Assembly: GCA_003568945.1 (NCBI GenBank)
Contig: BDIP01000056.1
Coordinates: 1 to 35,686 of the forward strand
From: Kipferlia bialata
Taxonomy: Eukaryota
Length of the DNA stretch: 35,686 bases
Direction of reading: 5' to 3'
Below the pieces are notes generated by a model. It did no database searches, was not told the origin of the DNA, and was given only the letters and a program-made list of their open reading frames with translations. This document shows positions 55 to 35,686 of this stretch, in pieces (positions within the stretch are counted from its first letter, which is position 1; the number at the start of each line of letters is the position of its first letter). A program made the translations under genes and the position numbers.

Positions 55-789
55 GCCTTCAAGACCAAGATGGTCAACGGAGGTAATGCCGGGTAGATAT
101 ATATATGTGTGTATATATATATACATAGAGAGAGAGAGAGAGATGGTCAACGGAGGTATGGCCGGGTAGATATATTGAGTATGCCGAGTATTCCCCTCCC
201 CACCCTCTCTCTTTCTCTCTCTACATGTCTTTCCCCTTCCCCCCCTCACCCCTTAGGCCTTGGTGTCTTTGGCTCCGGCTGGGTCTGGCTCATCAAGAAC
301 AAGGACGGCCAGCTCGAGGTCGTGACCACCATGGCCCAGGTATGCATCTCTCTCTCTCTCTCTCTCTCCGACTTGTTATATGATATTATATGTATGTATA
401 CCCTTGTTGGTCGTGACCACCATGGCCCGGGTATGCATCTCTCTCTCTCTCTCTCCCTCCAATATATCCCTATAGTAATGATTGGGATTCTTTGGCTGTT
501 CTCTCTTTCTCTCTCTATCTGCACCCTTATTGTCAGGACAGGCCCCAGGGCACTCTCCTCCTCGCCCTCGATGTGTGGGAGCACGCCTACTACCTCGACT
601 ACGAGAACAGGAGGGCCGGCTTCCTCGAGGTATATATCTCCCTCCCCCCCTCTCTCTCTCTCTCTCTCAGATTCCTAGTAATGTGTCTCACTTTAGTCTA
701 ATACTTCTTTTACATTCATACTATATATTGACCCCTAGGCCATCTGGGGCAAGATCAACTGGGAGAACGTGGCCAAGCGCAACGAGTAA
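55..789 (+). CDS. SOD: Fe/Mn superoxide dismutase, C-terminal part (5' end outside window). Exons ~55-82, 257-339, 537-629, 739-789
   Basis: GT-AG spliced translation [84 protein letters not shown]. Contains the FGSGW and DVWEHAYY signatures. Segment 55-82 follows an (AG)n tract and could itself be an echo copy. Confidence 0.95.
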
Positions 790-11100: not shown

Positions 11101-13649
11101 GGGCAGCAGGTGGTGCAGGGATTGCCTCATAGGACTTGGCAAAGTAGGCCTCGGGACTGCCTTCCTGAGAGGTCAGACTATGCTACTATACACGTGACGT
11201 ATATGAATATATGTATACATATATATACATATGCAAAGCGTCCTTCTGTTCGTACCTTGATGCCCGTCCAACTCATTCTGAGCTTGAGTCTCATGTAGGG
11301 TAGCACACCTAGGGTAAGAGATGCACAATCACACTCTCGTAACCTCTCCATGAAGGAACAAACACATTGTACTACACTATTGTACATATTGTTCCCATAG
11401 TACATGGAGTATCTATCCATACCCACCTGTCATTGGCGGCATGAATGTCTGCAGGGTTGGCTACACATCCGTATATACTTCTAGTGTACATGATATACAT
11501 ATATATGTGTGAATATATATCCACACCCGTCATGGGCGGCATGAATGTCTGCAGTGTGGGCTGCTGGACTGTGCTCTCAGGGGGGTCATTGAGGTACAGG
11601 GTCATCAGGGGTACACGTGCATAGAGTGTACGGAGAGGGGGGAGGATTGCCTGAAGTAAGGAGCATGGAGAGAGTATCTAAATAGAGGTCACTATCTGTA
11701 TTGGAAGGAGAGATTATACTGTAGAAGATGGTAGTAAGGACCCACCTCTGGCTCCTCGATGTAGTTGGCAGCGGAGGACGCCCAGGTGTACCCTCTCCTA
11801 CGATTAGCACTGGCACAATAGAGACTGTCTTTATATACATGTGGCAAAGTAATATACCTCAGCTGGTACATGATGTAGTTCTCAAATGTCCATGCATCAT
11901 AAGTATGTACTATACAATATATAATATCGAAAGAGTATATACTATATACATAACTGTGGTATCACAACCATATACAATATCCTATATACTACATTCTATA
12001 CATATACCATACCTCAGCTGGTACATGATGTAGTTCTCAAATGTCCATGCATCGTGGTACTGGGGGTGGTCACGGCCTGAGGGTCAGAGGGGTCAAGACT
12101 AAGATCATATGTATCGTGACAGTATTCTCAGAGAAGACCCACTGGTCCACTTCAACATATGTAGTGATTGTAGTGGTACTGGGGGTCGTCACGGCCTGAG
12201 GGTGGGAGGGGTCAGTGGAAACAGCATACATACATAGTATATGTATCACTGGGTGCTCTCCTATTTGAAGAGAGTGAATAGTTTGGGAATATCTTACTGA
12301 GTTCCTACTAGACACTGTATATATAGTATACTTATCTATATATATATACCTACTATTGTGGCAGCTGTGTCTATGTAGTGGTCGTATGTGCTGTTGTTAG
12401 CGTATCTCTCAGCAATGGCAGCCGGGTACTGAGCAACCAGGCCCTTGACACCTGGTGTTGATGAATATGACACTGTAGCTATAGTGATAGTGATGGTAAG
12501 TGCATATGACACTGTAGATATAGTGATAGTGATAGTGATGGTAAGTCCATACGATAGTGATTATGATACACTAGGTATATAGTAATTAATGAATCTCAAG
12601 GGGTATGATACACAATAGGTATACAATAATGTATGAATCTCTTGGGGTATGATAAACAGTATATGATGTGTACCTGGCAGGTATGGGTCTGGCAGAGCAG
12701 CGCTCGTGTAGATGTTGGAGACCTCTCCCTGGAGGTGAGATACATTGGCTGTAGAATACTACAAGGCATGATCTATATATACACTTTCAGGGACAGAATT
12801 ACCTGCAGTAGTGTATACTCCATTGCATTCGGCACGTGTTCTCTCTCATTGGAGTATGTGGGAGCCAGCTATTGTCAGATGTATGCATATCAAACACAAT
12901 CCACCGGGTCGAATAGACTTGTCAATAGGAGCGAGAGTACCTAATATATAAATTCAATGTTACATTGAATCTATGTAAGAGGTTAAACACAGTTGCTAAT
13001 GAGAGGGAGAGAGTACCTGCTTTATGACCAGGGACTCAGACGGTGGCAGAGACCCGTGGTGGGACCTGATGTCAGTGAAGAGACCACAATTTCCTATACA
13101 ATACTGTCCTACAGAAAACACTATTCCCAGTAATGAATGTACTATAGCGGATGATACTATAACACTGATACCTCGTGTCAATGGGTACCCCATTAATGTC
13201 CTGAGGAAGGAGAGCATTCTGGGGTTAGAGACATTTCCGTATATTGGATACCTACAGCAATGAAGATACTCTCACAAGTCTGGTGGATGAATCAAACATG
13301 TAGACTACACTATATGTATACCTCAGCCTCGACCAGCTGTGCCAGTTCCACCCATGGGTCATAAACATCCCTCTCCTCCTGTGTCATGATGGAGACATCA
13401 GACATCTGGGGTCAGTAAGTAAGTATACTGCACACATATATATATATATAGATATATATATGTCAACGTACATCAGGGCCACACCAGACATCTGGTAGGA
13501 GACAGTTAATACATATACACTGAGTAGAAGTCACACAGTGCAGTACAACCAAGATAGTATTGAAAGACAATTATGTGCAAGAGATGTTGGTTATAGAACC
13601 CTGTCGAGAGGGTACCGTGTGTGTATATACTATATATAGTGTATTCTCC

Positions 13650-13685
<36 letters not shown>

Positions 13686-16600
13686 GTATACCTTGTCGAG
13701 TGGGTACCGTGTGTTGTCAAACACAGTCATCGAGACTGGGACACCGTATCTCTTCATACTGGGGTGAGATTGATGTGGATTACAATCTACTGGTATAATA
13801 CTATCTAGTAAAGAATCTAGAGTAGTACTCAGTTGTTTAGAGATGTATACCAGAGTTATACTCACCTTGGGGAGATGTATTATGTATATATATCAGATAG
13901 ACCCACCTAGGTCTCTCTATCGATTACCAATAGTGAATACATATCAAATAGATTGACCCACCTAGGGGAGTTGTCACCAAAGACAGTGGCAGCTTGGTAC
14001 TGGACATTACCTGACTTGTCAGACACAGAGTAAGCAACGCGATACAGTAGGGAGATGCACACTATAGTAGGCACGTGGGAGTATGGTGGTATAGTATGGT
14101 GGTATAGTATGGTGACCCTCACCTTGGTACTGGTCTAGCAGGGTGCAGACATAGGGGTTGCCCAACATGTCATAGCCTGTGCAGGGCTCTGTTGGGTACT
14201 GGAGTCAGTTATAGAGAGCATACTCACTGTCACATACTGTATAGTAGGGCTTACATACCGTTGTATCTGATACATAGTCACTGAGCATGCACAGTTGACA
14301 GGCAGCCTCGGCCTCCTCTATGTAGCCAGCTGGGGTTATTCATTGACACTATAACAAGTATACAGAGAGAGGGAGTCTCTCATACCTACAGGCTCATCAA
14401 CGCTATCCCCAGTTTCACATACATTTTGACATATCATATATATGTGTCTCCCACCTACATACTCATCCACTAAGCCCACCATGAATGGGAACAAATGTGC
14501 CACCATGAGGTATGAGAACATGAAGCAGAGGAAGGGCAGGACAAAGATGCCAAGGAAGCCACAACGACGAGAGCTAAGAGTTAGAAAGAACTTCAAACTC
14601 AAAATAACTCCAAACTTAGAAGAACTTCAATCTTGGAAGTACTCTATACTTAGAAGAACTAACTTAGAAGAGGAAGAAGACTGTTAAGATCATATTCACT
14701 GTGAGTGTCAGTGATGATTACCTGTCCACTGCATACAGCTTGGACATCAGACCCCGTATGTATCTGGGTGTATTCAGTGGCGGGTTGAGCACATCTATCT
14801 GGGGGGTCAGTAGAGAAAGAGCAGGGTCTGCATGCAATGGTGACGACTCAACATTACCTTTGCCTCGCCTTGGGCGCGCTCTCTCTTCCTCCTCGCTCTC
14901 CTGGTGTCAGTGTAGTATTTATGAGTATTCAAACATGATACAGAATGAATGACTGAATATAGTAGATGCGTGTATGATACAGGGATTGACGCACCTACTC
15001 TCCCTCTGAGATATGGTACCCGTGTCAGTACCGTCACCTTCACCAACATAGCTGGGGTTCAGAGCGATTCACATCGGACACTAGAAATAGACTCGAATAG
15101 AGAAGATGTGGTATGCTAAGATTGTATGGGGTTATTGCATCTACCTGCCGGTCTCCGTCTCCTTTTGTGTAGGTGTAGCACCCACAGATGACCCTATCCA
15201 CTCCTCAGAACCCTCGCTGCCACCCCAGGCAAGCACCTCTCTCTGCAGTTAGGACACATACACGCATCGAGTAGTATACATGCTATTCATGACTAACTGG
15301 ATATTAAATTTGGTACCTTCTGTATGGCCCTCCTACTCTCATCTCCGCCCTCCTCTATGTGCATGTTGGCCAGTGATCTCTTATGTGATTCAGCCATGGC
15401 CCTAGAATTATTAGCTGCACGATACGTAAGACTACACGATAATTGGGGATATTGTATTATGAGTATTGAAGTTTACCTGTGGCCGACGTTGATGAACACC
15501 TCCTCCAGGCTGGTCTGGGTATGTCAGAGGGAGAGAGAGGGAAATGGGGCGAGAGAGGGGGAGAGAGGGAGGGGGAATTAGTGGAGAGCTTTCTAACTCA
15601 GGACGCCATATAGTAGGCCTAGTAGACAGAGAGTATGGGTACCTGGGTACACGATATGTCCTCTATGTACTCGAACCCCATCCCCTCTCTGGACTCTAGT
15701 ACACTGAGAAGATCAGGGAGCTTCGACTCTGTATCCTGACACGTCAGGCATAAGTAATGAGCAATCACACAACAGCCCACCGTCGGACAACACGTATATA
15801 GTAACGCAACGTATGAGTAGTAACCCCCACCTGACTGACACTGTATGTCAGGCTCTGCGCACTGTGGTCCAGGAGGGTCAGGGTGTGGGTGGGGGCCTGA
15901 GGTAAGTAGTGGAAGGAAGTAGTGAATAGAAGAGAAAAGTACTAGAATCAAGGTCTGGAATATGGTGTGCTTGGGGGCCTGAGGATATTAGTAGTATACT
16001 GAGAGAGACACATAAGGTTGGAAGCAATGAGAAGATCTTACCTCAGGGTCAGTTGCCAGTGCCTCAGTGAGAGTGCCTGGGGGGTGAGACAACTACAAGC
16101 CTATGACTCAATAGTTCAAGATATGTAGGAGAACATATGTGCTTATATGTCTGTGTATACTAGTGTATACAAGTATTCTAACCTCTGGCACCCTCCCCCT
16201 CCTCCTCCCCCACTGTGGGTGTACCACCCTCTGTGGTATCCATATACTCTATGGACATACTCTCACAGGTCCTGGGGTAAGTATACAACAGACTATACCT
16301 GCAGAAAGCCACTATGCCAAGTACATATATTCACGAAACACAAGTAGTGTGTAAACATGTATATATCAGTACCTTCTGACGGCACTGGCTATCACTGACG
16401 TGTGCGACGCAGAGTCAGCTACCACAGATATCACAAATCCAGTTCCGAACTTTGCCTTGGAGTAAGATTTAGATGTGAGACCAAAGACAGTACATACATA
16501 TGTCATAAAAGTGAAAGGTGAGACCCAAAGACAGGTACCCACTAATAAATAGACATACAATTACACACAAATACTATTCTTTGTTCTTCAGACTGTTGGC

Positions 16601-19600
16601 CCCACCTTGAGGTGCAGCACTGTGCCAAGAGCAGCAATCTGGCCCTGGAAGGTCAGAAGAGAAAGACATGTGTCAAAACGTACCTGAGCAGAGAGTGGAC
16701 TGCACTCCTGTGATGTACCTTGCTCATGATTGCCACCACATCCCCCAGCCTCTCAGCCTCTGGCATGTCATGGCTGGTCAGCATCACAGCGGGAGGGGGG
16801 GCCCACTTCCTAGGGGTTAGTACATATAAATATATGGTATCTTAGTAGTTAGACCCACTAGCGCAAGCGCGTAGTACTCTGGCTTATCGTGTAGCTTATA
16901 CCCGTACCTCCTGAGGTGTCCGTGTCTGCCGTATGTGGGCATCTGCTGCTTCTGTCCTGTGATGGCCTCCACTGCAGTCCACACAGTGTGTCTGGCAATG
17001 GGGTCTAGGCCTTAGGTTAGACTCTAAAATATACACGACATATATGTGGAGAGAGAGAGAGAGTACGAGGTTACAGAGTGTCTGGCAATGGGGTCAAGGC
17101 CTGGGGTGAAAACACTGATTGCTCTCTGACCATAAGCAATTCGTACATATTCATACCCCTCTACATACCTGTGGATGGCTCGTCCAGGAGATTATACTAT
17201 ACACATATATACATAATATCCACTGTAAATCTATCAATACTATATAAATAGTTACCTATACCTGTTGCGGGCTCGTCCAGGATGACCAGTACATATATAT
17301 ATATAGTAGAACTCACATACGTATATAAATATATATATTCATATACATATACACATACCCGTAGAGGGCTCGTCCAGTATGACCAGCTTGGGACACCCGC
17401 TAAAGGCCATGGCTATGCAGAGACGCCTCAGCATACCACCAGAGAACCTAAAGGTAAGATGGGAAACCCTATACATACATACCGGTACGTGTAGTATATA
17501 TGTGAGCATATAGAGGAATATGATGTATGATGTACACGTACTGTCCAGCTGGCTTGTTCTTGACATCGAGTAGGTCCACATAGCCCAGTAGCTCATGGGC
17601 CATGGCCTTGATGCACCTCTTGGGTATGCCTGGAGTGAGGGTGTCAACACATCAGAAACTGCTATTTCATGTTATGATATATATGTGGCATACCCCTAAA
17701 TCGTACATACTCACATGTACTGCATGGGAATATATACACATATATGTATTATTACCATAAACTCATATATATATATATGACATACTAACCCTTGATCATG
17801 CAGACTATCCACATGTGCTGGATGGGTGACAGGGAGGGCCAGATGGTGGTGTTGCCCTGGGGGCATATGCCTAGGGTGCGCCTGGTTGTATAAGAGAGAA
17901 TATCATGAGGTATTAACAATTCACACACTTATGGTCACTATCTATAATAGTACACATACACATCTTATCTGCAGAGGGTGCTATATATATATATATATAT
18001 ATAGTATACCTGATCTGCAGCGGGTGCTTGTTTAGTGCGTGGCCACTGATCCATGCCTTGCCCAGTCTAGAGGAGACGGGGTTGTCAGGCTTCAGAGTGC
18101 CTGGAGTCAGTTGGATACTGTAGAACACTCCTATATATATGAGAACAGCACCCGCTACTCAAGAGTGGACATATGGCGAGATACTCACCTGTGAGCATGT
18201 CTATTGTGGTACTCTTCCCTGCCCCATTGTGACCCAGGAGACAGAAGGTCTGGCCCTGCTTGATCCTGGGATGAGATGCACAATATAGACCAATCATATA
18301 CTTACGTATATAGTATTAAGATAGTGTATATATATGACATATGTATCTAGTGTGTAGGTCTGACCCTGCTTGATCCTGAGGGGTAAGATAGATCTATATA
18401 TAACAATTGTATACAATAGAGAAGTGTGCAGGAGTATATATACATGACAATAGTATCTGAAGTGAAGGTGAGCCCTCCTTGATCCTAAAAGATGAGATAT
18501 ATAGAGATATATAACGGAATAGCAACTCATTTGGATGGAACGACTACAGGACTGTAAGAACTCGGTATAATATCAAAGCTCAGAGCGAAGCACATAATTG
18601 GTACACGAACTCACTCCACCAGGAGTAGACATCTGCTCTGACGATATGTATATGGAATCGTACCTCAGAGTGACTCCATTCACCGCCTTGTTGTACTCTC
18701 TCTTCCCAGACTGGAAGGTCTTATCCAGAGAGTGGGCAACAACCTATCCAGTGAGATACCGGTATTAGTAAAGTGGTATGTGAGCAATCGCTACAATCTG
18801 TAAACTACAATACATATAGTGAGTGTTCACTGTACACTCACCACTGCCTTGTCGAGAGCGGGGTGGGTCAGGACAGACACCATCTCCTGTCTCACATCTG
18901 GGGTGACATGTGTGTATATATATATATACTATTAGTATATATACTCAATGCTATATATATAGGTAGGAATACTAGTATGTGACTCGGGGCAGACACCATC
19001 TCCTGCCTCACATCTGGTGGGTGAGATATATCAATATTAATACATATATATATATAGCCATATATACAGATATGTATATACACAGCCATACTATATATAG
19101 ATATGAATACATATGTAAATAGATGTGGGGGTGAAGGTAGACACCATCTCCTGCCCCACATCTGGGGTCAGACCTATACATAAAATGACATAGGGGGGAT
19201 ATAGTGAAAGTGTGGGTGTGTTAAAGTAGCTCTCTGTGGCGGGTGTAAGATGTACCTGAGTCCAGAGGCTCTAGTCTGTCAGCCGTCCCTGCTGCCTCAT
19301 TGTAGGGGAGAGGGACACGCTTGTGCTTGTCTGCACAATGAGACAAGGAGAGAGATAATTAAGGACATACCCAAAGTCTATAGTGTGTATCAGTATATGA
19401 TAGATGCATAGTCCAATATAGTACTATGATAGCTCAAATGCGTGAGACAAAGATCAGTCATTGCATGATAGTGTTCGTGTATATAGTGCTATCATAGTTC
19501 TGACACTGCATATTGTGCTTGTCTGTATTGAGACAAAGATCAGAAATTGCAGTGGCCATACCCAAGAGGTGTATACAAATATGATATATCTATTGTCCAT

Positions 19601-22600
19601 GACAGTACTCTAATACTTCAAATGCGTACCTCTCTTCTCCGCAGGCACAGTCTCAGACCAGTAACTCCTGGGAGGTCAGGATAGGGACGAAGACTACAGC
19701 CAGAAAGTACCTTCCAGAATAGTAATCATTTACACTGGATACAGATTGAGTATAGTACATGTACCTCTAAAGCCATCATATACACTCGGTATACTATATT
19801 GTGTGTTTCGTCTACACATATAGAGTAAAGAGAGTGTACCTCTTCAGAAGCTGGAAGGGGTTGCGTCCTGGACTGCCGTTGGAAGGCATCCACTCCCCTG
19901 GGGGTAAGAGAACATTGGATATACTACTATAGCCAAACAGCATATCAGTATCATCATTGGGTAAGAGCACAATGGAGATAATACACTAAAGCATTGTGTC
20001 CATATCATACATGGAGTGCAGTGTAAACTATACACTTCCACCCATTACTGTAATACAACGATAGTTAACATAAAGACTATACATGCTACATTACCTACCA
20101 CCCATGTGACAAGCAGCCACACGACCGAGTTGACCAGCATATTGATGAGGGCACTTGAGACAGGAGGGGTGTTGTACACACAACCTGGAGTCGGACGAAT
20201 CAATTAATGACGTTATTGCCTTGTACCATCTCTTTGTAGGATATATATGCTACTAGACCAGAATACCAAATCCCAAACACTTGTGGGTCCTCATCTGTCA
20301 CTATACTATAGCCACTACTCTACCTGTGTATCTCAGCATCATGAATACACACTGATCATATTGTAGTAGTATACCTGTTCCCAGGCACTTGTACCCATCG
20401 TACTGGTACAGGTCAGACCCAAAGAGCATCGAAAAGGTGAATCTAGGGTCAGAGAGAGAGATGTCTATACCACAGCGAACATTGACATTAACAACCAACA
20501 ATATATAGATTTATATACCTCTCTGTGGGTGGCACCAGTATGGTCTCGTATGTCTTCATGTCTATCCTCAGGGTGGGGAACACTACTATGTACACAGCCC
20601 TGAGGGTAAGACTTATACTAATACATATCAATGACAATGAAACGATGAGTATATAGTATCAGCCAACTGGGTGTTTCACAAAGTGAAAGTATATCAGTGA
20701 GAATACAATGGGTATGTGATTGTAGAAAGATACGTACGATAGTGCGACTGCAAACGGCACGAAGGGGAAGACGTTGAACAGGACAGTCTGGAGACCAGAG
20801 GGTATGAAGGAAGGGTCGTAGAAGAGGAGGTCTCCGTACATGTGACCTATCATAGGGCACATAATGCCTAGGGTGAGATGCATAGATAGAGAGACACACC
20901 ATCATAGCGAGAGGGTGAACACTTACCGAATATATAGATTCAAGTATATCCAGAAAGCATGGAAATTGTCAGACTTAAATATGGGTAATAATTCAAACTG
21001 AGACTGTGCTGGATACACACATAGGAGACATGCAATCATGGCCCTTATGATACAAATGAATACATATACACTGACTACCAATACCTATGATGGTTACCAA
21101 CAAGCATGCAATCATGGCCCCTATGATGCCAGATGTGACACACCCTACTAACAGACCGATGGAAGTGGCAGCGAAACCAAAGATGAAGAAGATCGTGAAG
21201 GTCACCTCTAAGAGTAAGTTTAGAGAGGGAGAGAGAGAGTATGGGAAACAAAAGACGAAAAAGATGGTGAAGGCGACTTCTTAAGGTTAGCCACATAAGA
21301 GAAGGAGTGAAAGAGACAACAACTCTGTAAGAAGAGAGGGACAAGCATAGAGAGCTAAGAGTCTGAGAAGAAAGTGAGAGAGCCTCGCAAGGTACGCACC
21401 GACATCTACGTATCCAAATATGTCGCAGTCTGGTATGGAGTGGAGGAGGTACAGGAAGGGCACAAGGGTGAGTGTGTACACAATCATCTGGACAAGTGAC
21501 CAGCTGAGCCAGTACAGTGGGTCCCTAGAGTGAGAAGACAACTCGATATACATATATAGATTATATATACATAGAAAGAGAGAGAGTAGCAGCTCAGCCA
21601 GTAGAGGGGGTCTCTGAGTGTCAGTGTCAGTCCACTGCCGCGTAGATACTTAGTCCCAGAAGATGTGTTGCGTTTCGTTTACCTGACCCCCATCACTCTG
21701 AGTGCTGTGAGCTTCCCCTGTCTCTTCTCCACCACTGCACTCTGGGCCACCATGAAGATCTGAGAGTTAGAAATACATATACATATTCACTTACAAACAC
21801 ATCAAGCCATTCACGTGAAGATCTAAGAGTGAGACAAGAAGTCATACACAGAACGAACACTACATCGACATCTAGCCGGTGAGACTGGTTTCCACAATGC
21901 ATGTCACTCCTCCATCACAGTCACAAAGAGCGAGGGAAGAGGCTGAGAGGAAATGCAGTAGTACCTGATAGGCGACGACCATCGTAAGCAGGACTGCACT
22001 GGTCAGGGGATCTGGAGTGTGAGAGAGAAACAACCGGGAACATACCAATAAATATAGGTATAGAGAGGGAGAGGGTATATACGGTATATACAGTATATAT
22101 ACAGTATATATAGTTGGTTATTACGATCCCATACCTGGCACCAAGAATGTGTCTGCCACACCTCTAGAGGGGTAACCCTTCACCTAGGGTGTTAGAATAT
22201 ACTATAGAGATAGCATCGGGTATGACAGACATACGATGAGGGATTCCCATTCGTCTGGTGTATTAGACATCCCATAGGGAAAGGGGTACATGACATCGTT
22301 GATGAGTATATGCTTGAAGTCTACATGATATACATGATATATACGTACCAGCGGGTCAAATATCGTCCCAGACTGCTCATATACAATGGCCTTCTCAATA
22401 GCATGCTGTGCATAGAGAGTGAAGCCTGACCACTGGACCTGGGATATGAGTTACATATATTATATATATATAATAGAAAATAGTATTACATATACATTAT
22501 GACATATTATGTAGTGGAATGGACAATAAGTTCAAATAAAACACAAAGACTACTGGCCCTAGGGGTACTAGTGATACATCATTGAGACAATAGAATCGCT

Positions 22601-25600
22601 ATACCACCCACCGTCCCATACTCCTCTGGCCAGTAAATCTAGCTCATATTACAGATACTAATACTATCCCCTCCTGCATATATACATATGTCTATAGAGT
22701 GCATAACCCACCGTCCCATACTCCTCTGCCAGTGGGTCAATATTTCAAAGACACACATATAGATATGAGCACATGTGTATGACTATCGATAGGCATGTAT
22801 AGATTTACGTAATGGTACACACTCACCGTGCCGTACTCCTCTGCCAGTGGATCTAGGCCATCCTGCATGTACAGGTAGGCATCGTCTGGGGGTACGGAGG
22901 GAGTACAGATAATTTTGTAAGCTAGTTCCTATTTATCACACAGAGGAAGAGATTATAGAAGGAATGCCATCCTGCATGGATACGTAGACATCGTCTGGGG
23001 GTAAAGAGGGAGGATGAATAATATATCAATTCCAATCACTGAGATAGTGATGCTCAAGTATGAGAGGAGCTAGTGGAAGAGAGTACAAGGAGGGTAACGA
23101 AATAGTGTTGATACACTCAGAGGAAGCAGAAGAGATGATATGCTCCGATACCTAGCACCGTCTGGTTGTAGTGTATGGTGTACTCAACGTTGGAGGGGAG
23201 GGTCTCAAGGTCAGTGAGACCAGCGAAGGAGACACCTGGGGTTAGAGAATATGAGTGTACTGTCTTCTACATATTACTCTAGAGTATGTCAAACATATAC
23301 ACATATATATGTAGTGGGCGAAGGAGACACCTGGGGGGTTATGGTGCCATAACACGAAAACATACGAGACAAATGAATAGGGAAACTAGTAGGTAACTGG
23401 TAACTCACCATATGACCCCTGGGTTATTGAAGACATGACATCATACCGTCAACATCCCCACTAATAGTACATGCAGTATATGGTAGAGTCTATATAGACC
23501 ACCTAGCCATACCTAGCCATATGACGCCTGGGTTGTTGTTTGCGTATCTGTCCAGCTCCCATCCAGAGTCAAACACCATGATGGACTCGTCCTCCCACCC
23601 AAAGTCGGCTAGAGTAAGGAATGTATATATATACTAATACTCAATAGGGTAATACTAATTACACACTATACTATTGTATGAACACCATGATGGACTCGTC
23701 CTCCCAAAGTCGGCTAGAGTAAGAGGAATATAGAGGTATACATATGTACCACTATAAGAGAATTCCAATCTAATACTAAATACACACTACTGTATGGACA
23801 CCATGATGGACTCATCCTCCCACCCAAAGTCAGCTAGAGTAAGAGACAAATATCCGAATACTCACAAGGGTAATACTTAATACACACTGGTCTACAATGG
23901 AATCATCCTCCCAATTTGGGTTACACAGGGAGAGATTAATAACATGCAGGGTCAGCGATGTATACAGTGAGGATAGTAGAAGACACATATGTACCCCACC
24001 TATGACTGCGTCCATTGTCCTGTTGACTGCCAGGTTGATAGCAGGGGCAAATACATATATACATATTCCTATATATATAAATGTGTGTGTGTGTGTGTGT
24101 GTGTGTGTAGACTATACACCAGTCTATAACTGTCTCCGTACCTATCACTGCATCCATTGTTCTGTTGACTGCCAGGTTGTTAGCAGGGGCAAAGGCTAGG
24201 GACACACACCCCGAGTCAGGCTGGGGTACACCCGGACCATGCCTAGAGGGTAAGGCATACATATATATATATATATATATATAGGGATAGAGAGAGAGAG
24301 ACACCCAGAGTCCGGCTGGGGGACACCCGGGCCATACCTGGGTAAGACAACATATGCATATAAGAATAGAGAGAGAGAGTGAAAGAGAGAGACACACACC
24401 CCGAGTCGGGCTGGGGGACGCCCGGGCCATATCTGGATAAGACACTACATACATATATAGATAGGGAGAGTGAGTGAACGAGAGAGAGAGAGACAGCCCG
24501 AGTCCGGCTGGGGGACACCCGGGCCATACCTAGTGGGTAAGGTATACGCACACACATATATATGAATGTATGCATATGTATATATATAGGGAGAGAGAGA
24601 GAGAGAGCGGAGTCAGGCTGGGGGACACCCGGGCCATACCTAGTGGGTAAGGTATACGCACACATATATATATGAATGTATGCATATGTATATATATAGG
24701 GAGAGAGAGAGAGAGAGCAGAGTCAGGCTGGGGGACACCTGGGCCATAACTGGGTTATATGGATGAATAAAGGGTGACGAGAGTATATGCCGAGAGTACC
24801 CACCCGTCACTGCCGTCAAAGACTGCACAGGAGGGGACAGGGGGGACGGCCTTGGCCTAGTGTTAGTACAGATATGTATATATATGTGTATATGTATATA
24901 TATAGATAGATATAGAGAGAGAGAAAGGAAGAGAAGTGGGGATAGCGTTGGTCTCTTGATGTCAAACTATATATAATACATGTAGAACGAGGGAGACAAA
25001 GAGAGTATAGGCCAGTATCGGTAAAGACACGTCGCGTGGTTTTTAAGGAGAGGTTGCACAACGCTGGAACTACACGTAAATACATATATATAGATATATC
25101 ACTCACCACTGGGTGGTTGTTTGGATCCAACGTGGACAATACTATGTTAGGCCACTGCCACAGGACTAGGACAATGGCCATGGGGACTAGGAACCTGGGG
25201 TAAGAGAGATAGATATACCTGTCACTAGGTAGACATGTATATTAATGTGTATATACACACAATTATACGTCAAGTACTAGGGCAATGGCCATGGGGACGA
25301 AATACCTGTATATATAGACATAGTGTATTATATTACTATATATTATTATATATATTTTTTTATATATACACATTGTAGATTAGTAATAATCTATATACTA
25401 GGACAGTGACTGTGGGGAGGAGATACCTCTGGTAAGAGCAAGCGATATACATATAGGTAGAGGTGACATATACCTAGTCACAAACAGCATCGTAGACTCC
25501 TTGACAGCTGACAGGAAATGCAGCATGTACTAATATATATATACAACCATACTATATGTATAGTATATATACTAATATACATATATAGTAGTACAGGACT

Positions 25601-25942: not shown

Positions 25943-26045
25943 CTCTCTCTCTCTCTCTCTCTCAGGGATAGGACAGAAGACTGGCGTCAATGTGAATGAA
26001 AGTGGGGGAAGAGAGACCACAGAGACATGAGAGTAGGGGTAGCAT

Positions 26046-26076
<31 letters not shown>

Positions 26077-27087
26077 GACAGAGAGAGAAGCGATGTGGTG
26101 ACAGAGGGATGTGGTCGAATATATATATTGAGAACAAGAATATATTGAGTACGCGTATCAGAATGGTGAAGAAAGAGGGGGGGGGGGGAGAGAGAGAACA
26201 CTGAGTTGCACATCCACTGATTCAGTCAGGCTTCTCCCTCATGCAGATACTAATGCATATATACAGTGATAGTGAGGACTACTATAGGAGAGAGTAGGAA
26301 CATCGCAGACTACTACCCTATGGTCTCAATCCATCTCTGACCACCCCACCTACCTCTGATATACATCCACTTATACTAGCTGTTGGCAGCAATACACTAG
26401 CCTACACACATCACCCCTCCAAGAAACTATGCAAATAGAGGGTGACGATGCATATATCACAGTACCAGAGCGAGTTTGACTCCCATAACGGCCTATCAGC
26501 CATATAAAGCTATGATACACCCCCATACCTATCCAGAGTCCCTGTGGAGACCGGTACGTGCTGGAAAGGCCCAAACCGTTCTGCAATCGACGTATCCCAG
26601 TGCCTCCTCAATCCACCGTGTCTATGTTTACAGCCCACTACAGTCTGCACCGTTGGGGAGAGATACCCTCAACACATGCATATCTCATACTGAGAGAGAG
26701 AGAGAGAGAGAGGCTTTGGCCCACTAGGGGCACCTTGAGTAATGGAAATACGAGCATTAGGTGAATAGAAGGTGAGTAATGGATATGTACTGATTCGGAG
26801 TCGGGAGCGAACGGCTGAAACGTGAGAAGGACAAAAACGTCAAAGGGTGTAGTGAGAAAGACTCCCCACTGCCTCTACTCTCTTATCAACAGTCAGTGGA
26901 TAGCTTGCCTAGAGGTTAGTAAACGCAACACAGGCAAATAGCTTGTATATTGAGTCCATGTAAGGGTAATTCTGTGTGAGTCATCTGTAGGCTATATCCA
27001 ATAGATACCAGTTTATTACTTAGAGTAGATACTATCCACTAGATACTGAGTCAGTATCCCTGACCACCAGACAGGCCCATAGTGGAT

Positions 27088-28575
27088 ATGGCACCTAGGC
27101 AGCGTGCCCGTATCTACACCCCCCTGGAGACTATACTACAGGAGGGTGTGACGTCACATATCATCAGCAAGCTGAGAGAGGGAGGGGTGCACTCTGTAGA
27201 GCGTATCGCAATGATAACACCTCAGGCTCTGGTGAGAGTGAAGGGAATGAGTGAAAAGCGAGTTGAGGCCATAAGAGAGGCGGCCAAGGAGAGGCTTCAC
27301 ACACACTCCTTCATATCCGGGACAGAGTGTATGGAGAAGGTCGCCAACACATACCATGTGTCCACAGGGTGTGTGGCTGTGGACACGATACTGGGGGGAG
27401 GGATTGAGAGCAGAGGAGTCACTGAGGTGTATGGAGAGTACAGGTGCGTGTTGTCGTGAATCGAACCCCCCCCTCTTCTTTTCACAATAATCACATTCAT
27501 CTCATTCACCCCTCTATATCCCTCTATATCCCTCCATATTGCACCCTACACAATAACCACTTGCCTTTTGTCTCCTTGTGACACATAGGACCGGCAAGAC
27601 CCAGCTGTGTCACACTCTAGCAGTCACTGCACAGATGGGGGAGAACGGAGGGAAGGTTGGTATAAAACATACACATCGCATGTCGTGTATACTTGGAGTA
27701 TTCGTGTCTCTCTTCTTGTATATTCTGTCTAAAGTCTATTTATTACTGATACTCAGGTCATGTATATCGACACCCAGGGCACATTTCGCCCCAAGAGGCT
27801 TGAGCCGATTGCACAGCGCTTTGGCCTCGAGTTTGACAGTGTCCTAGAGAACATCGTCTATGCAAGAGTGTACACTCACACGCACCTGATGGAGATGATA
27901 ACTCCTATGTCAACTGCCATGGCGCAAGAAGAGTAGTCACACTATATACTAAATATCAATATCCCGTTACGTAAGATATGCTCCGCACTTACTAACCCCA
28001 AGGGTCAGGCTAGTCGTGGTGGACTCTGCCACCGCACCCTTCTTCGTTGACCTGCCTGGGAGACGTAATCACTCTGAGCGGGAGGAGGTATTGTTGTCCT
28101 TGGGAATACATATATACTATCACGTAGATGATCAGACGGTATATACTATATAGTATACAGTATATACCTCCTGCCCTGACTATCAGAAGCTTAGCGTGTA
28201 CCTGTCTAGCCTGATGAAGCTGTCCTGTGAGTTCAACGTCCCAGTATTAGTCACCAACCAGGTATACCGACGAAAGAGCAAACAACCCCACCAAAGTTAT
28301 ACGCTTGTAGATGTATTGTCCGCTTATTCTCCCTCTTTCTTGACAGCCAGGTCACAATGGATACCGACAATACATCTGGCCGTTACCGCCAGAACAAGCC
28401 TGTTGGGGAGAACGTCGTCGGACACTCAGTCACTACACGGCTGCGCTTCGGCAGATTCCTTTCGGGCGATTACAGGTGGAGCCGTAGCTGCTGCGTCCTC
28501 CACTCCCCAGGCCTCCCAGAGGAATGTGCAGACTTACAGATATCAGACGGGGGTGTCACTGACATTGACAATTGA
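27088..28575 (+). CDS. DMC1: DMC1/RAD51-family recombinase, divergent and DMC1-like. Exons 27088-27443, 27589-27655, 27757-27932, 28003-28087, 28187-28261, 28351-28575
   Basis: N-terminal HhH region (KLREGG...VKGMSEKRVE), STG...D.ILGGGIES, Walker A GEYRTGKTQLCHTL, YIDTQGTFRP, ARVYTHTHLME, Walker B LVVVDS, KLSCEFNVPVLVTNQV, GHSVTTR, ISDGGVTD. All introns are GT-AG and in phase. DMC1 rather than RAD51 is judged from motif resemblance only. Confidence 0.88.
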
Positions 28576-28806
28576 TACCTTTCAAGCTGACAGTCAAGTT
28601 GACAGTCAAGTTGACTGAGTCGAATACTGAGAAACAGTGCCCTGGGACACGTTTAATCGTTGGAGGTCAATTAGATATATCGAGTATTAATTACGACTGA
28701 GATGTGTCATAGAACACTTCAGACTCCTGTCTTTCATCGGCAAGCTAGTTACGGTAAACGGTGTAAACCCTTTGTGCGCCGTACTATATATACTATATAA
28801 CCAAAC

Positions 28807-29173
28807 AAGCTGTCCTGTGAGTTCAACATCCCAGTCATAGTCACAAACCAGGTACTGTCATTCAAGTGTATTTTAGGGTAAGACTCTTGTCACAAGAGTA
28901 CCTATAGTTGTTAGATACTTGACATTCAGGTCACAGAGAATACGACTACACAGGTTTTAACGTTGAAGACATGAAGAAGAAGCCTACTGGGGGTATGTTG
29001 TCGGACACTCAGTCACTACACGGGTGAACCTCCGCAAAGGCCCTCCCAACAACATTAGCTCAAGCCGCTGCTGCTTTCTCGTCCACTCCCCAGACCAGCC
29101 AGAAGATGCAGTTGGCTTCCAGTTATCAGACGGGGGTGTCACTGACTACGATGATATAGTCGTCATCCACTAG
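28807..29173 (+). pseudogene. Partial diverged copy of the recombinase 3' end (half of exon 5, intron, exon 6) with frameshifts
   Basis: KLSCEFNIPVIVTNQ|gt at 28807-28851, acceptor at 28929, then frameshifted KKPTGG.VVGHSVTTRVNLRKG...HSPDQPE...LSDGGVTDYDD..H* (TAG 29171-29173). Confidence 0.88.
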
Positions 29174-29445
29174 AGGACGTGTTTACAGACTCATTCAAAG
29201 TCTCTAGGCCAATCCTGTGTGTCGAGTTATTGTCGACGGTGACTTGCAGGCATCTAAGTTGCATGATGCTACTTGAGTCTGATTACACATAGATGATGAA
29301 TGTATTACCTACTATTGTTACACATATAGCCTGCTTTGTAACAATAGAATAGTGCAATGTTGGGTATACAGTTTATACAGTGCATATTGAGCAGAGAGCC
29401 ACTTTCTTGCATAGTCCACCTTATATTGTACGTCGCTATCGACCA

Positions 29446-30607
29446 TCAGCTGCCGTCCTCAAGAAAGAAGTAGTTATAGGGAATGGGGTCGACAGTAATG
29501 ACGCATGGTGTCCTTTTCGCCGGGTCCAAGCTGCCGCCTCCATAGAGAAAGTGTGTGTATGGGGAAAGGGAGACAGCTTTGGAGTAGTTCCAGTTTCGCT
29601 CTGTATATAGCCTGGATGGCCGGACAAGAACGGTCTCTCCACTCACAGTGTCAAAGAAGGTCATAATCGAGTCAGTCAACACCATAAGGTATCTGCCCGG
29701 CACCTACGGTAAGGGAAAGGGTACACTACCTATACTAATGTCCTACAGATACATACAGAGCAGTCAACGACGATAACAAGGTCCAAGCGTCAGTGTTTCA
29801 TTAATACCTGAACAGGGTACCGCAGTAAAGGGAAGGTGTACTCACATCTGCCCCACTCTCCTGTCGGAAAGGTGTAGGTTGGGCAACCGGTACCTGATGA
29901 CAATGACGGAATATACGCGGTCTTGCCCACAGACTTCATCCACCCGATCGTTTGATACTTGTAGATAAGCGGGATTACACCGCCACTACTCCAGAAACGT
30001 GAGTTGGGGTCGTATATATCGATGGTACCAGCATGCGTCCTGTCCCTCCTATAAGGGTACCGAGGAACATTGAACACAACTAGGTAACCAATGGTTACTA
30101 ACCATCGATACACACTGAGACCTGTCTTACACCGGGATGGGGCACATAAGCTCCTTCACCAGGGTCTGAGAGGTAGTCATGTTCACTCCACTGTAGAGTG
30201 TCGAGAGAGAGTGTGTTCAGAGTTGCTGTGGGAGTCACGTGACTCTTACCCTCACTTGAAGGAGTGCAATAGGTGTGGCTACGATAAACGTATAGTATGC
30301 CACCAGTACTACAGAATTTGGCCCATTCTATGTGTCTGAGGGTTCTCGGGGTCTCCAAGTGGCGTGCAGTGAAATGGTAGCACCCTGGATCTGGAGTGTC
30401 CAGGCTCTCTCTCTCTCTGTCGCCCTCTAACAGGAATGCTCCCTCATGGCAAGTGGACCCAGTTCCACACTGTAACAACAGCCCGTGATGACAGAGCACC
30501 AGAACAGTATAGCTGTCGATGGGGAACGCATGTAAGATATTTACTCTTACGACCCTCTCAGGCCACTGAATGGCAGTCTGTCTGTAGTGTACCGGGAAGG
30601 GCTCCAT
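29446..30607 (-). pseudogene. Divergent kelch/beta-propeller-like gene disrupted by a 14-nt insertion; intron 29807-29704
   Basis: ORFs 30607-30098, 30113-29808 and 29703-29446 join into one protein with kelch-like blade ends (LSLDTLQWSE, IDIYDPNSRFWS, FFDTVSGE). Frameshift at 30090-30103. Confidence 0.55.
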
Positions 30608-30923
30608 AGACTAGTAGGTTCCTGATCTAGAGATGGTGTCGACGACGATTGGTAAAGATGTATGTCATAACCTGCGAACAGACGAACATACATGTTGAAT
30701 ACCTCAACATGGGGGCCCAAAGCTTGGAAACTGGTTGTCGAAAGATGACCTCTCGATTCATCCAAATGATGCCGTCAGACGCCGGTTAAATTCGTGAACA
30801 ACACTGAAGGCATTCTGTCTTAAGACACGTTGTTCCTGTTGTAGGGGACCAGGCAGCACATAGATATCCAACCCCAACACACAAGAAAGTCTCCAACCTG
30901 AACGCTTGGAACTCTTTCGTGGC

Positions 30924-31855
30924 ATGTCCACCCCCTCCCACCCCCGCAAGGGTGTGTCCTATGTGCCCCTTGTCATTGATGAGGGTGGAGAGGCAGCAGG
31001 ACTGGGCACTCCGATGGCAGAGGTGGGGGTGGGAGATACATACACAGAGACATACACAGAGGGACACGCAGAGAGAACGGGTGTGAGAGAGGCCTCACCC
31101 ATTGCAGACAGAGAGACACTGGGAGACACAACGAGTGTCTTCACTGAGGCTGAGCCTGAGACTAAGGGTGTTAACCTGCCTGAGGCTATAGACATGAGAA
31201 GGACATCCCCTGCTACTACCACAGCGTCCCAGCCCAGCTACCCCACGACAATCTCCTGTAGCACCACTGGCAGATTCATGGATGGGGGAGAGAGAGAGGC
31301 AGGGCTGGAGCCAGGGGTCCTTGTGCTGGGGGTCAGGCTTGGATGTGAGGTGAGTTTACCTGTACATACGAGGGCATGAACGCTAAGTCCATATACAGTA
31401 TGCATACAGTTCACTTTGTGTGTAACATGCTGTGGTTACACTATAACTCTCTCTAACCAAAGAGAGACATCACGCTTCTTGACTTTCCAGACGAGTCAGT
31501 ACTCCCCATCCCATGCTCTCTCCTCTACACCTATGACGGTGTAGACAGGAGCATCCACATCAGGACCAACCCCCTCTCCACCCACAGCACCCTCACTAGA
31601 TCACAGTTGGTGACAGTAGTGTCTGACCACATAAGCCCTGTGGTAGTGGGTGTTACCAAGTGTCCTGTCGATGGACACAGGTAGGGTTACAAAAATATAG
31701 AGATAGAGATAATGTAGTAAATTTCTTTACTACTCTTTTGAAACCGACACAGGACAGGGGCACTGGTGCTATACGGGGCACAGAGAGTGGACAGGGAGGG
31801 AGAGGGAGGGGGAGTACCAGTGTACAGACTCCTACTCAACACAGTGCTGGACTAG
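30924..31855 (+). CDS. Hypothetical 248-aa protein. Exons 30924-31349, 31463-31680, 31753-31855
   Basis: ATG, donor gtgagt, acceptor ctaaccaaag, donor gtaggg, acceptor ccgacacag. Phases 0 and 2 match, and the 747-nt spliced frame is open to TAG. No family recognised. Confidence 0.75.
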
Positions 31856-32603
31856 GGACATGTAATCGTGTTGATATGTCTGATAGTGTAGCCTACCCCA
31901 AGGGAGATAGCCTATTCTTGATAGTAATATACAGGAAGATGTTGAAATACTTATGAGCGTCTTTAGGAATCAAGGTAATGGTCAGAAGCGATCATCATTG
32001 TTTTTAATTCCCGAAGAGAAGATGGAACCATTTTGGGAGGCGCGTTCAATGATTGAACTTCAATCAAGACGAATTTTAGAGTCGCACTTTCTCCATCTAG
32101 GAAGGCCCTGCATACTGTATTGGTAGTGTCAGGATGTCGTCGTTTGGCCAGTGCACCAGGTGAGATATGACTGTATCTTGATACGTTGGACTACGTTTCC
32201 ATGGCGATGCCCTTCATATATACCATGCTCAGTGCGGCGATCTAACAGGTTGCTATGTACTTCGCCGTGCCCTTCCTATTGTCACAGACCCAAGTTTAAA
32301 GCCCCGTAGTCCAGGGGCCACAAACAATGGACATGAGTGACATTGAAGAGCCTGACCCTCCTACACCTCACCCGCTTTCAATACAGACGTACTATTTCAC
32401 TGTGATTTGGTATACACCGAAGTTACTGGCGTCTATTGAGTATCCTTAGTACACTTGGGATGTAATGTCCTCTATGATAGGTCCTCTGCTTCGACCTGTC
32501 CTTGACACTGAAGGTATCACCAGTCCATGTCCCATTGTGTCAGTGGATACCGGTACCATGAATACACATATTCATGTGTACACTTCCGTGTGTTGGGTAG
32601 CTG

Positions 32604-33752
32604 TTACCAGTCGAAGTCCCACTCTGTGTAGTGCTTGAGTACTGAGTCAGAAACCCTGACCAGGAATGCAGCGTGAGGTGCTCCAATAGCGAGCAAAGTA
32701 CAATACGATAGTACCAGGATGTAGTTCGGTGATAGCCGACATAAGTGGGAGTCATCCAACCAAAGACGTCCAAGACCCGGGACGGGGTCGCACTCTGCCA
32801 GTTCCAGAGAGACTGGGTCTAGCAAGTGGGGAGGGCGTGGTACCATGTGTCCCACAAGCTCTTGGGAGTCAATGTTTCCAAGAATCAGAATGTTGCAGCC
32901 CAACACAGCACTGGGAGAGGCCCAAGCCGTACGCGCCCCACTGACACATGGACGCAGCACCCGCTCTGGAAGCTGATTAAGTAACTGACACCTAGGAGGC
33001 AGGAGGCTTGCACGAGAAGACACATCCCACTCTGGTACTTGCATAGCGGAAGTCTCAAAGGGCTGCAGGACGTTTGATTGCATCGCTTCAGAAGGCACTA
33101 GGTGCCAGAACCGTCGGCCTACAATTTGTGATCCAGACTCCCACCTACACCTACCTGTGACCACTACGAGACCACCAGTGGTCCTTGCGGTTTCAAGGGC
33201 GCGTATATGGCAGAGTGCCACGTCGTTACCCTCCTCTCCAACTACCGCTTGGGCTATCCACTCTCTCGTATCAATGTGGAACCTCCAGATGGTGTTGTGG
33301 AACGTAGGCTCCTCTTCGTCCATGTCCACCAGCTCTGCAGCTCCAACCCATACCACACCAGATAGACGAATGGGGACAAGGGTCACTCTACAACACTGGT
33401 GGAATGGACACTCGATCCTCTCACATGCCAGTGTGTCATCCAACTGTAGACTCACTATGTTGCACCTGATGTTGGTCTACATACAATCTAGATTCCGATA
33501 CCTTTGTTAGAGATACAACTAGAGTTGACTACACTCGCGCGATATGGTCAATTAGCATTACGTACATGAACTGAAAGCCCTTCTCACCAACCCACCCAGT
33601 CTTGCCAAGAATGATGGCAGTGCCGTCTCCAAGTGATGCACTCTGAAGGTCATATCCTAGGTCAACGTCCTCTAGGACCTGCGTGCAGCTGTCAAACCTG
33701 GAGACAGACTAAGACGGAACCACTCTAATCGTTGGTGAAGGCTCTTCACCAT
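32604..33752 (-). CDS. Divergent kelch-like beta-propeller protein. Exons ~33697-33566 and 33465-32604; 5' end uncertain (frameshift or tiny intron after ATG ~33752)
   Basis: SLGDGTAIILG..F|M.CNIVSLQLD joined by a phase-2 GT-AG intron. Long ORF with IWRFHIDTREW and LLDPVSLELAECDP..LCRLSPNYILVL, similar to the gene at 34599. Confidence 0.65.
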
Positions 33753-34598
33753 TATCCGACTTTCCCATCAACACTATGTTACTGTAACACAATGTCTATG
33801 TAAGTGTCTCACCTTGTACTATAAAGCAGAGCGACAGTATACAGTGCTTACTATACACTTTTAGACTAGGGTAGGTCTATCCAAACATTTACTTACCAGT
33901 GAAGGGGAGCTGACATGTTGGTTAAGAAAGGGCAGGTGCACTCAGGTGCCTATAACAGCGAACCAAGAGAAGACCTCATGTACTAAGGCAGAGAATGTGA
34001 TGTCCTCAACAGTAGCTCTTAGAAGTGATATAGACTGGTGCTCTGATTCAGAGCCTCTGAAGCTATCATCTTTGCCGTAATGTTCTCACCCACTCTGATA
34101 GAGTTTTGAGACAGATTGTTAAACAGTCTCCTAGAAGAATATCGTGTTGCTAGTGCCCGGAAGACCCACCTTGTGAGACTACTAAATTGGATATGTGTAT
34201 GAATAGGAGTGTTCCTAGTGAGTGTGCGGGTATAGTGCGTCAGTAAATGTTCGAGTATGTTGTCACAGTCTTGCGTTAATGTGTCACGAGGGGTTGACAC
34301 TGACAGCATCACCATCTCTCTCAGAACAAGCCCACAGTCCCTTTACAGAGTTTCGACACACTAAGTGGGATTCGTTGCCAAGCAATAGACCCCAGCGGTA
34401 TATACTCGAGTGTTTCATGACCTATACAACCGCTGAACAGTACAGCTTGGATTTGATGCCAATGTGAGACCATCACTGTACAGAGTCAGTTCGCACTTCC
34501 ATCTGAACTAACCTCCCTCTCAGCTCAATCACTCCTTTGGAGCGTACTTCAATAGCGAATAGTGTAGAGCTTGAAGGACTCGATTGTCGCGTCTTGTC

Positions 34599-35686
34599 AT
34601 GTGGCCTCTAGAGTGGTTCAAAGGGGTTACCACCCTTCCAGAGATAGAGCGTGTTCCCGAAGACACACCTGACAATAGCCCATGGAATGTAAGAGAATTC
34701 GCACAGGTAGACCTAGCAAGTCTTCTCTTCCCTCACTATGAGGTTTGCATTGCTCCTTGTTACATTAGTATTCTCACTTTTAGGCTGTGGCAGTGGATAA
34801 CTCAAGCGCAATGGTGACCCTTGCAACTGGATTTGGTGTCAGAGAGTGGTACATTGCGTCACTCCAGCCGGACCGCACACTGTATCGTACAAGAATAGCT
34901 GGACCCCCCAGTACAGCAGAAGTCAACGACATCCAACTGGTCCGGGTACGCAACCACATTGTGGCATAGGGGGGTTCTTTTTCGATAGAGAAAGAAACAC
35001 CACGTGTCCCGTCCGGTGTCTGGCTTTGTACTCCCTCGAGACCTGTGAGTGGGAGGTTATAGAGCAGACAGTTGACTCCTGCCCCTGCCTCCAGTTTGAG
35101 TCGTATGTGTTTACGCTTGGTGACTCTCTGTATGTTGTTGGAGGGAGTGATCGCTATCCCGAATACGGACCCTACCGCGCAAGCACGTGGGAGTGGAACG
35201 TAGAAACCAGGGCCTGGTCACGTCACGGTGATGTTCCAGCGGGTATGCGTGTATGTCAGGAAAACTTCTTTGGTAACACAATCGGTGACGTGCATCATGC
35301 CGTGTCTCGCGATTCGTCACGTGGATGCCATCTCTCTTTCTCGCGGAGGGGCGGCTGGAGTGAGGAGCCTCTTGCTTTCAGAATACCACGTATTGATCAG
35401 AACGTGATGACCCGCTATGTGGTGTCCAGCTGTCGAGTGGGTCGTCATGCACTGTGTGTCGCAGGCAGCACTAGAGGACAGAAGAATACTAGGGTGTTCC
35501 TCTTTGACTTCGTGTCCTTAGACCTTGTCCAGTGTCAGCCAGTAGCCCTGGAGGCTTGTGCCGTAGGGTACGTTCCCTCCATGGTTATGTTCAACCCCAC
35601 CACACTCCTATTAGTGGGATTCATCGATACGCTGGTTGTGGACGTGGATGAGAGAGTGCTGGGACCCGAGTACATCACTTCAATGA
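34599..35686 (+). pseudogene. Kelch-repeat gene with premature stop and frameshift, running off the window; intron 34743-34783
   Basis: HIVA*GG (TAG 34967-34969), then a frame change before LYSLETCEWEV, FTLGDSLYVVGG, TWEWNVETRAWS, LFDFVSLDLVQCQP, MVMFNPTTLLLVG. Confidence 0.75.

Follow-up and report, generated by a model that had tools for sequence, protein, structure and literature searches.

Studies of C. elegans have indicated that failed SDSA can be closed by polymerase theta end joining (TMEJ), leaving tandem duplications whose size ranges from about 100 bp to 10 kb (PMC8654963). The products reported there for helq-1 resemble the copies described below in being head-to-tail partial copies, from about 100 bp, that involve one extended end; as given in that report, however, the template is normally the sister, the copies are identical at birth and their median size is about 1 kb. 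In Kipferlia bialata the nearest units mostly measure 50-230 nt, are centred on splice sites and differ by about 0.4 at silent sites. All 46 splice-site-anchored copies that we found at 88 exons are collinear partial duplications, none of them reversed, whereas their divergence does not follow the course of copies that are identical at birth and neutral afterwards (dN/dS 0.15 against about 0.46). Later allele exchange could reconcile an origin by TMEJ with so low a ratio.

Double cuts at SPO11 hotspots in mouse are described as yielding inserts (15-349 bp) as well as tandem duplications, and homologs are joined at nearby breaks, all of which could give a nested form; the events reported occur mainly without ATM, by end joining, in a mammal (10.1101/2020.06.23.168138). 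ATM is listed as present in K. bialata (PMC8516963). Intron gain by tandem genomic duplication of AGGT, as outlined in PMC3443670, resembles the present case in that a local duplication turns coding sequence into intron. The copies in Kipferlia differ by creating no new intron between duplicated sites: each runs across a splice site that is already there and makes the intron longer, and the splice joints fall at the sites of the live exon, with the copy skipped. Gao and Lynch are said to have described in 2009 how internal gene duplication converts coding sequence into intron.

In the hypervariable Schizophyllum commune, crossing-over is reported to be concentrated in conserved exons, which is the setting that a model based on diverged alleles needs; the part of that report considered here mentions no leftover exon halves, and hyperdiversity is known in S. 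commune, whereas in Kipferlia it is a requirement of the model (PMC4209137). Full-length duplicates with both splice sites, as in mutually exclusive exons, were found at 0 of 88 exons. Splice-junction duplicates are a known kind of event; meeting halves and allele-like copies are without a prior description among the papers listed by our search, which covered the main texts of open papers. The main text of the K. bialata genome paper contains neither 'duplicat' nor 'exon'.

Host gene and data

The window is the whole stretch of K. bialata DNA that was analysed, 35,686 nt of contig BDIP01000056.1 (assembly GCA_003568945.1). An exon model and the peptides of the annotated protein P0003 place a full-length ABCA transporter gene of about 90 exons at 1096-25942 on the minus strand. 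The model was self-trained and then curated by hand, since the automatic version took some of the partial exon copies in introns (echoes, below) for exons; it holds 88 exons and 2284 aa with zero stops. Counting three tail exons, 89 of 91 exon peptides are found exactly in P0003, an ABCA protein of 2406 aa. The annotated protein has 32 residues before exon 68 (8806-8930, minus strand) that are extra to the curated model. The best solved matches of the host protein are ABCA4, ABCA1, ABCA7 and ABCA3. The only paralog found, P0005, is 76% identical over 2279 aligned residues; a single-exon query for paralogs, in a search limited to 2000 aa, returned no match. All echo statistics refer to this one gene.

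An exon between two halves of itself

Exon 8 of the ABCA gene (22827-22885, minus strand; 59 nt, phase 1) lies between the live exons 7 (23152-23235) and 9 (22349-22438), both on the minus strand. In its upstream intron, directly after ccccag, a 5' echo (22963-22994) repeats the acceptor and exon positions 1-29, or 1-32 when a terminal ATT is counted, with 26 of 32 letters matching. In the downstream intron, directly before gtgggt, a 3' echo (echo 1, 22712-22741) repeats the exon from position 30 or 33 to 59 together with a GT donor; it matches positions 30-59 at 25 of 30 letters, and the codon table gives three silent differences apart from the ATT codon. Each of the two echoes has a score near 22, where the highest null score is 12.9. 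The upstream spacer (22886-22962, 77 nt) ends in the live acceptor, and the joint 22885-23152 has GT..AG ends; the downstream spacer (22742-22826, 85 nt) begins at the live donor.

A preliminary description of this DNA, made from its letters, had reported these half-copies, and we find them at the same coordinates. Joined, they form a 59-nt in-frame exon, 50/59 identical to the live one, with the peptide given in that description. Its further claim that exon 8 is live also holds, as the peptide is present in P0003 and RNA-type contigs join 23152 to 22885 and 22827 to 22438 with no letters between. Exon 8 and its neighbours being joined in this way across GT-AG introns, the echoes are skipped in the assembled transcript. 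The splicing comparison covered 22125-23950, and the contigs, from run X2, are called RNA-type by guess, although GT-AG introns are absent from them.

The halves do not, on the other hand, make up an intact older exon, as had been thought: all four amino-acid differences between the joined peptide and the live exon are absent from P0005. Two further features had been overlooked, namely a second 3' echo of exon 8 and the recurrence of the pattern at about a third of the exons. Echo 2 (about 22612-22647, minus strand) has a 1-nt insertion and reads CTAGAT as in the live exon; its start falls at exon position 25-31, the likeliest values being 25 and 30 (posterior 0.25 and 0.26). The two 3' echoes are sisters, because TAT, GGG and the donor flank are common to both.

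Positions 30-32 read ATT in both halves, against CTA in the live exon, and the 3-nt overlap of the preliminary description is present in that sense. Alignment alone does not fix it, since it places the end of the 5' echo at position 29 (90% range 27-32) and the start of echo 1 at 31 (31-36). Two unrelated intron trimers would agree by chance with a probability of 0.019, or 0.072 for two bases unlike the live exon. The shared ATT may have arisen when the target, in an Ile allele, was duplicated, or it may be spacer sequence; the former, which had been put forward as a target-site-like duplication, is weakened by the CTA of echo 2 and the Leu of P0005 at this codon. The other meeting cases stand at -4, +2 and -4. 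Whatever the origin of the ATT, the halves of exon 8 meet near position 30. The acceptor flank of the 5' echo is homologous to the live one (z 3.2-3.6), and the donor flank of echo 1 has no detectable homology to the live downstream spacer (z about 0).

Echoes along the ABCA gene

Every exon was compared with its two introns. As a null, 524 unrelated exon-intron pairs gave 21 matches with a maximum score of 12.9, and the cut-off for an echo was set at 13.5; lower-scoring matches were set aside and the second echo of exon 6 was omitted. The 88 exons yielded 55 matches at or above this score, 46 anchored on a splice site and 9 gapped or internal, the latter being set aside. Including the tail exons brings the anchored echoes to 52, spread over 31 of 91 exons and collinear throughout. 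The 5' echoes lie upstream with AG and the 3' echoes downstream with GT, the exceptions being one GC and one echo that runs into an N gap; reversed or full-length copies number 0 among the matches at 88 exons. A superfluous donor or acceptor would be the same burden in either intron, from which we infer that this polarity comes from the mechanism, which excludes randomly trimmed whole-exon duplicates. Some echoes carry frameshifts and a stop. Just 2 of 52 share at least 31 nt exactly with their own exon, and the longest exact match at exon 8 is 15-17 nt. In 10 arrays divergence does not clearly rise from the inner to the outer echoes, and hence there is no serial-nesting gradient.

Halves that meet recur at other exons, all on the minus strand. 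At exon 54 (12013-12076; locus 11858-12195) the 5' echo covers positions 1-23 (22/23 identical) and the 3' echo 24-64 (41/41). Exon 5 (24142-24242; locus 24000-24749) has five 5' echoes, three of them reaching position 45, and a 3' echo that begins at 50, which leaves a gap of 4 nt. At exon 90 (1786-1900; locus 1666-2093), which has an N run in the upstream spacer, the 5' echo reaches position 56 and the 3' echo starts at 61, again a gap of 4 nt. Exon 89 (2259-2317; locus 2172-2423), whose gapped 5' echo reaches position 23-32 and whose 3' echo begins at 30, is a possible fifth case that was left uncounted.

Some of these loci have further peculiarities. The five tandem 5' echoes of exon 5 (24293-24749, minus strand) show about 10 silent and 2 replacement changes among themselves, and all five, like P0005, keep Tyr at a codon that is His in the live exon. 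Exon 89 fits the reading frame and is conserved in P0005, but CAT rather than AG precedes it (2259-2330, minus strand) and the annotated protein skips it; its 5' echo has the AG and a 1-nt deletion. An error in the consensus, a damaged allele or a non-canonical acceptor could account for the CAT. Exon 85 has two 3' echoes (3287-3338 and 4260-4311, minus strand) that flank a long N gap and differ by 5 silent changes and 1 replacement; they could be tandem echoes or two haplotypes.

A proposed one-sided repair and the meeting of halves

Since 23 of the 32 echo-bearing exons are one-sided, a one-sided event is taken as the main process. We give an even chance to the explanation that the half-copies are skipped remnants of one-sided, imprecisely closed break repair in a very diverse or hybrid lineage. 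A broken end within an exon would copy some of that exon together with a splice site and 30-190 nt of intron; the extended end would fail to re-anneal and would then be end-joined to the other end. One such event would produce exactly one echo, either an acceptor with a 5' half upstream or a 3' half with a donor downstream. Only products in which one exon stays whole would survive, and with exon definition the half could be ignored in splicing. Metamonads are reported to be without Ku70/80 and DNA-PKcs, with alternative end joining full in some and partial in others (PMC8516963). Two young 3' echoes in the Fe/Mn superoxide dismutase (SOD) gene of the window (68-170 and 318-460, plus strand) keep an almost unchanged intron flank, as young local duplications would, and such duplicates are what they look like. 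As part of the same evenly weighted explanation, exon 8 would have needed at least two one-sided events, with ends that met by chance or at a re-used break position.

The two-sided exons are a difficulty for one-sided repair. A 5' echo is present at 20 exons, a 3' echo at 21 and both at 9, where 4.6 are expected if the two are independent (p 0.012). Three gapped echoes were added back by hand for this test only, and exon 89 was entered at -11 although its gapped alignment is nearer zero. The overlaps between the halves are -4, -34, -1, -43, +2, -49, -13, -11 and -4. Four of nine thus fall within 5 nt, against about 0.8-1.4 expected (p 0.002-0.025 over three nulls), and two of nine within 3 nt (p 0.08-0.13). 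The preliminary description had proposed to ask whether such offsets peak at 0 to +4 nt. Within the ABCA gene there is clustering near zero, which is borderline once exon 8 is left out, and the meeting cases span -4 to +2 instead.

These figures bear on another explanation, possible but doubtful in our judgement, according to which a single break near position 30 of an old exon 8 received the present exon with both of its flanks, 221 nt in all, likely from a diverged homolog. One-sided echoes would come from the same process, one end having been seamless or one half later lost, and are covered by the same doubt. The meeting within 5 nt of four pairs agrees with a single break, as does the fact that no two-sided exon shows an overlap above 5 nt, although the null probability of that absence is 0.14. 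The excess of two-sided exons (9 over 4.6) is about the number that meet, the halves of exon 54 abut at 23/24, the inserts would measure 206-317 nt and the ATT agreement has the low chance values given above. The mouse SPO11 inserts are of similar kind, at 15-349 bp and with joining between homologs; the deletions in that report, as far as the portion considered goes, come without non-homologous insertion from the homolog (10.1101/2020.06.23.168138).

The 5-nt window, however, was picked after the data had been inspected, and without exon 8 the test is borderline: three of eight pairs lie within 5 nt (p 0.009, 0.050 and 0.057 under the three nulls) and one of eight within 3 nt (p 0.33-0.42), with p 0.024-0.15 at 7 nt. 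Five two-sided exons have gaps of 11-49 nt, and at exon 8 both echo 2 and the paralog point to Leu/CTA and not to ATT. The result suggests a coupled class of meeting halves, in which one insertion and two events at a re-used break followed by recombination give the same pattern. The preliminary description had read exon 8 as renewed by insertion of a fresh copy. What speaks for insertion is the close meeting of four in nine pairs, the doubling of two-sided exons over expectation and the largely coding-like divergence of the echoes (dN/dS 0.15); the majority of one-sided exons and the borderline test without exon 8 speak against it. Freshness at the same locus has to be given up, as it leaves the silent excess described below unexplained.

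Silent divergence between echoes and live exons

The nearest echo on each side of an exon, 38 echoes in all, was compared with the live exon. This gave a dS of 0.437, a dN of 0.067 and a dN/dS of 0.153 (bootstrap 0.094-0.24), about 91 of 147 differences being silent and codon positions contributing 32/27/95. Simulations of copies dead from birth, with a matching score threshold, gave 0.447-0.465, with a minimum of 0.263 in 600 runs. Among echoes the ratio is 0.28 (14 pairs). Third-position divergence is not overdispersed across echoes (chi-square 33.9, 37 df), third-position G+C is 0.69 in echoes and 0.71 in live exons (introns, 0.38 G+C), and 13 of 95 third-position changes are of CpG type. 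When 60 distinct amino-acid differences were polarised by P0005, 42 were echo changes and 3 live changes, with 14 unresolved and 1 unaligned. P0005 was itself considered as the template, through paralog conversion, and was rejected because the live exon is nearer to it than the echo is, at 297 against 262 of 370 codons.

A ratio so far below the simulated 0.46, together with amino-acid decay mostly on the echo side, makes it likely that echo and live copy go back to separate coding alleles, which differed by about 0.3 at silent sites. Judged by sequence, the echoes are probably dead and have decayed by about 0.05 per site, and some 0.3 of the silent divergence would have built up while both lineages were coding. 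The simplest source of the excess is different alleles, or the parents of a hybrid. Under one-sided repair, a diverged homolog would have served as template, or later recombination would have swapped in another allele of the live exon. The silent diversity required, near 0.3, would be extreme and counts against the combination of one-sided repair with alleles. Among the contigs compared over 22125-23950 there is neither a second allele of at least 88% likeness nor an unsplit exon 8 nor a transcript that uses an echo, but this absence carries no weight, as the DNA contig of the locus itself does not appear among them. The allelic part is also weakened by the 5' echoes, which alone give 0.27 (0.154-0.46) and so touch the dead-from-birth value (3' echoes, 0.086), and by the rise of the ratio to 0.31 when every echo is padded by 6 nt. 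The published K. bialata draft has two k-mer peaks, from which diploidy was concluded, and the text considered here gives no diversity figure (PMC5874029).

Ordinary same-chromatid tandem duplications, dead from birth, with a silent bias that reflects selection on the live exon alone, would dispense with such diversity, but we regard them as improbable. In their favour are the geometry, the echo-side position of the amino-acid changes, the SOD echoes as young local duplicates and an upper bound of 0.46 for 5' echoes alone. The predicted overall ratio, near 0.46, is nevertheless far from the observed 0.15 and further still from that of the 3' echoes, and silent sites in live exons would need to evolve about 5.5 times faster than those in the intronic copies, although neither CpG changes nor composition give a signal of it.

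It is very improbable that a short-read assembler has put two haplotypes in tandem. The window does contain N gaps, some between near-identical copies, and no DNA contig bridges the exon 8 locus among those compared over 22125-23950. N is absent from 22500-23200, however, and exact matches between echo and live exon are at most 15-17 nt here, with the long exact matches noted above confined to 2 of 52 echoes. Frameshifts and a stop within echoes likewise do not suit an artefact. Run X1 contains all (1.00) of 937 sampled words of 15000-24000, but X1 may be the source of this DNA. Least probable of all, despite low dN/dS and retained splice dinucleotides, is that the halves are in use, spliced together in a non-canonical way as an alternative exon, or that they are relics of whole-exon duplicates that were mutually exclusive. 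In five meeting cases no GT follows the 5' halves and no AG precedes the 3' halves, RNA-type contigs join across echoes, full-length or reversed copies are lacking and echo residues depart from the paralog.

Spacers, flanks and the rest of the window

The spacers measure 32-189 nt (median 75), and echo-bearing introns are 2.4 times longer than the others (median 256 against 106.5 nt). Dinucleotide repeats cover 0.24-0.42 of the first 60 nt of the spacer, compared with about 0.1 in echo-free introns. Enrichment of microsatellites at the junctions themselves was considered and dropped: they occur at 23/38 junctions against 0.19 in echo-free introns, but the rest of the spacers is much the same (35/74, p 0.23).

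Acceptor-side flanks are partly homologous, with z above 2 in 6 of 19, and on the donor side z exceeds 2 in 0 of 18, whereas simulated flanks with 30% substitution and up to 10% indels stay detectable in 71-100%. As the flanks are less alike than the simulated ones, they would be older, faster-evolving or partly filler. This pattern speaks for a later exchange that renewed parts of the exon rather than for one recent copy, and the lack of donor-flank homology counts against both one-sided repair and single-break insertion in their simplest form.

Echoes may be regional within the window. Positions 25950-35686 hold no near repeats scoring at least 15, and dinucleotide-repeat cover is 0.02-0.05 beyond 27500 against 0.07-0.20 before. 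A Rad51-family gene, the protein of which is 100% identical to a record named Kipferlia bialata, is followed directly by a diverged partial copy of its 3' exons (28807-28854 and 28997-29155, plus strand), with 88% and 49% protein identity and 72% DNA identity over 158 nt. A 290-codon open frame at 32604-33476 (minus strand) has no Pfam match.

Implications for Kipferlia

A general statement of single-break insertion would be that Kipferlia renews its exons, breaks within exons being patched with an exon and its flanks from a strongly diverged homolog while the split old allele is left on both sides; we consider this rather unlikely. If it were true, introns would be a fossil archive of extinct alleles, with silent diversity near 0.3 within a single assembly. 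About 125,000 introns are reported for K. bialata (PMC5874029); these would supply thousands of cases for the offset test, which could settle whether single-break renewal takes place. Should the silent excess prove genome-wide, the assembly of one free-living fornicate would measure past allelic diversity or hybridisation, the echoes would explain part of the lengthening of introns, and the introns of Kipferlia would reveal how exon breaks are repaired in a lineage that lacks Ku.
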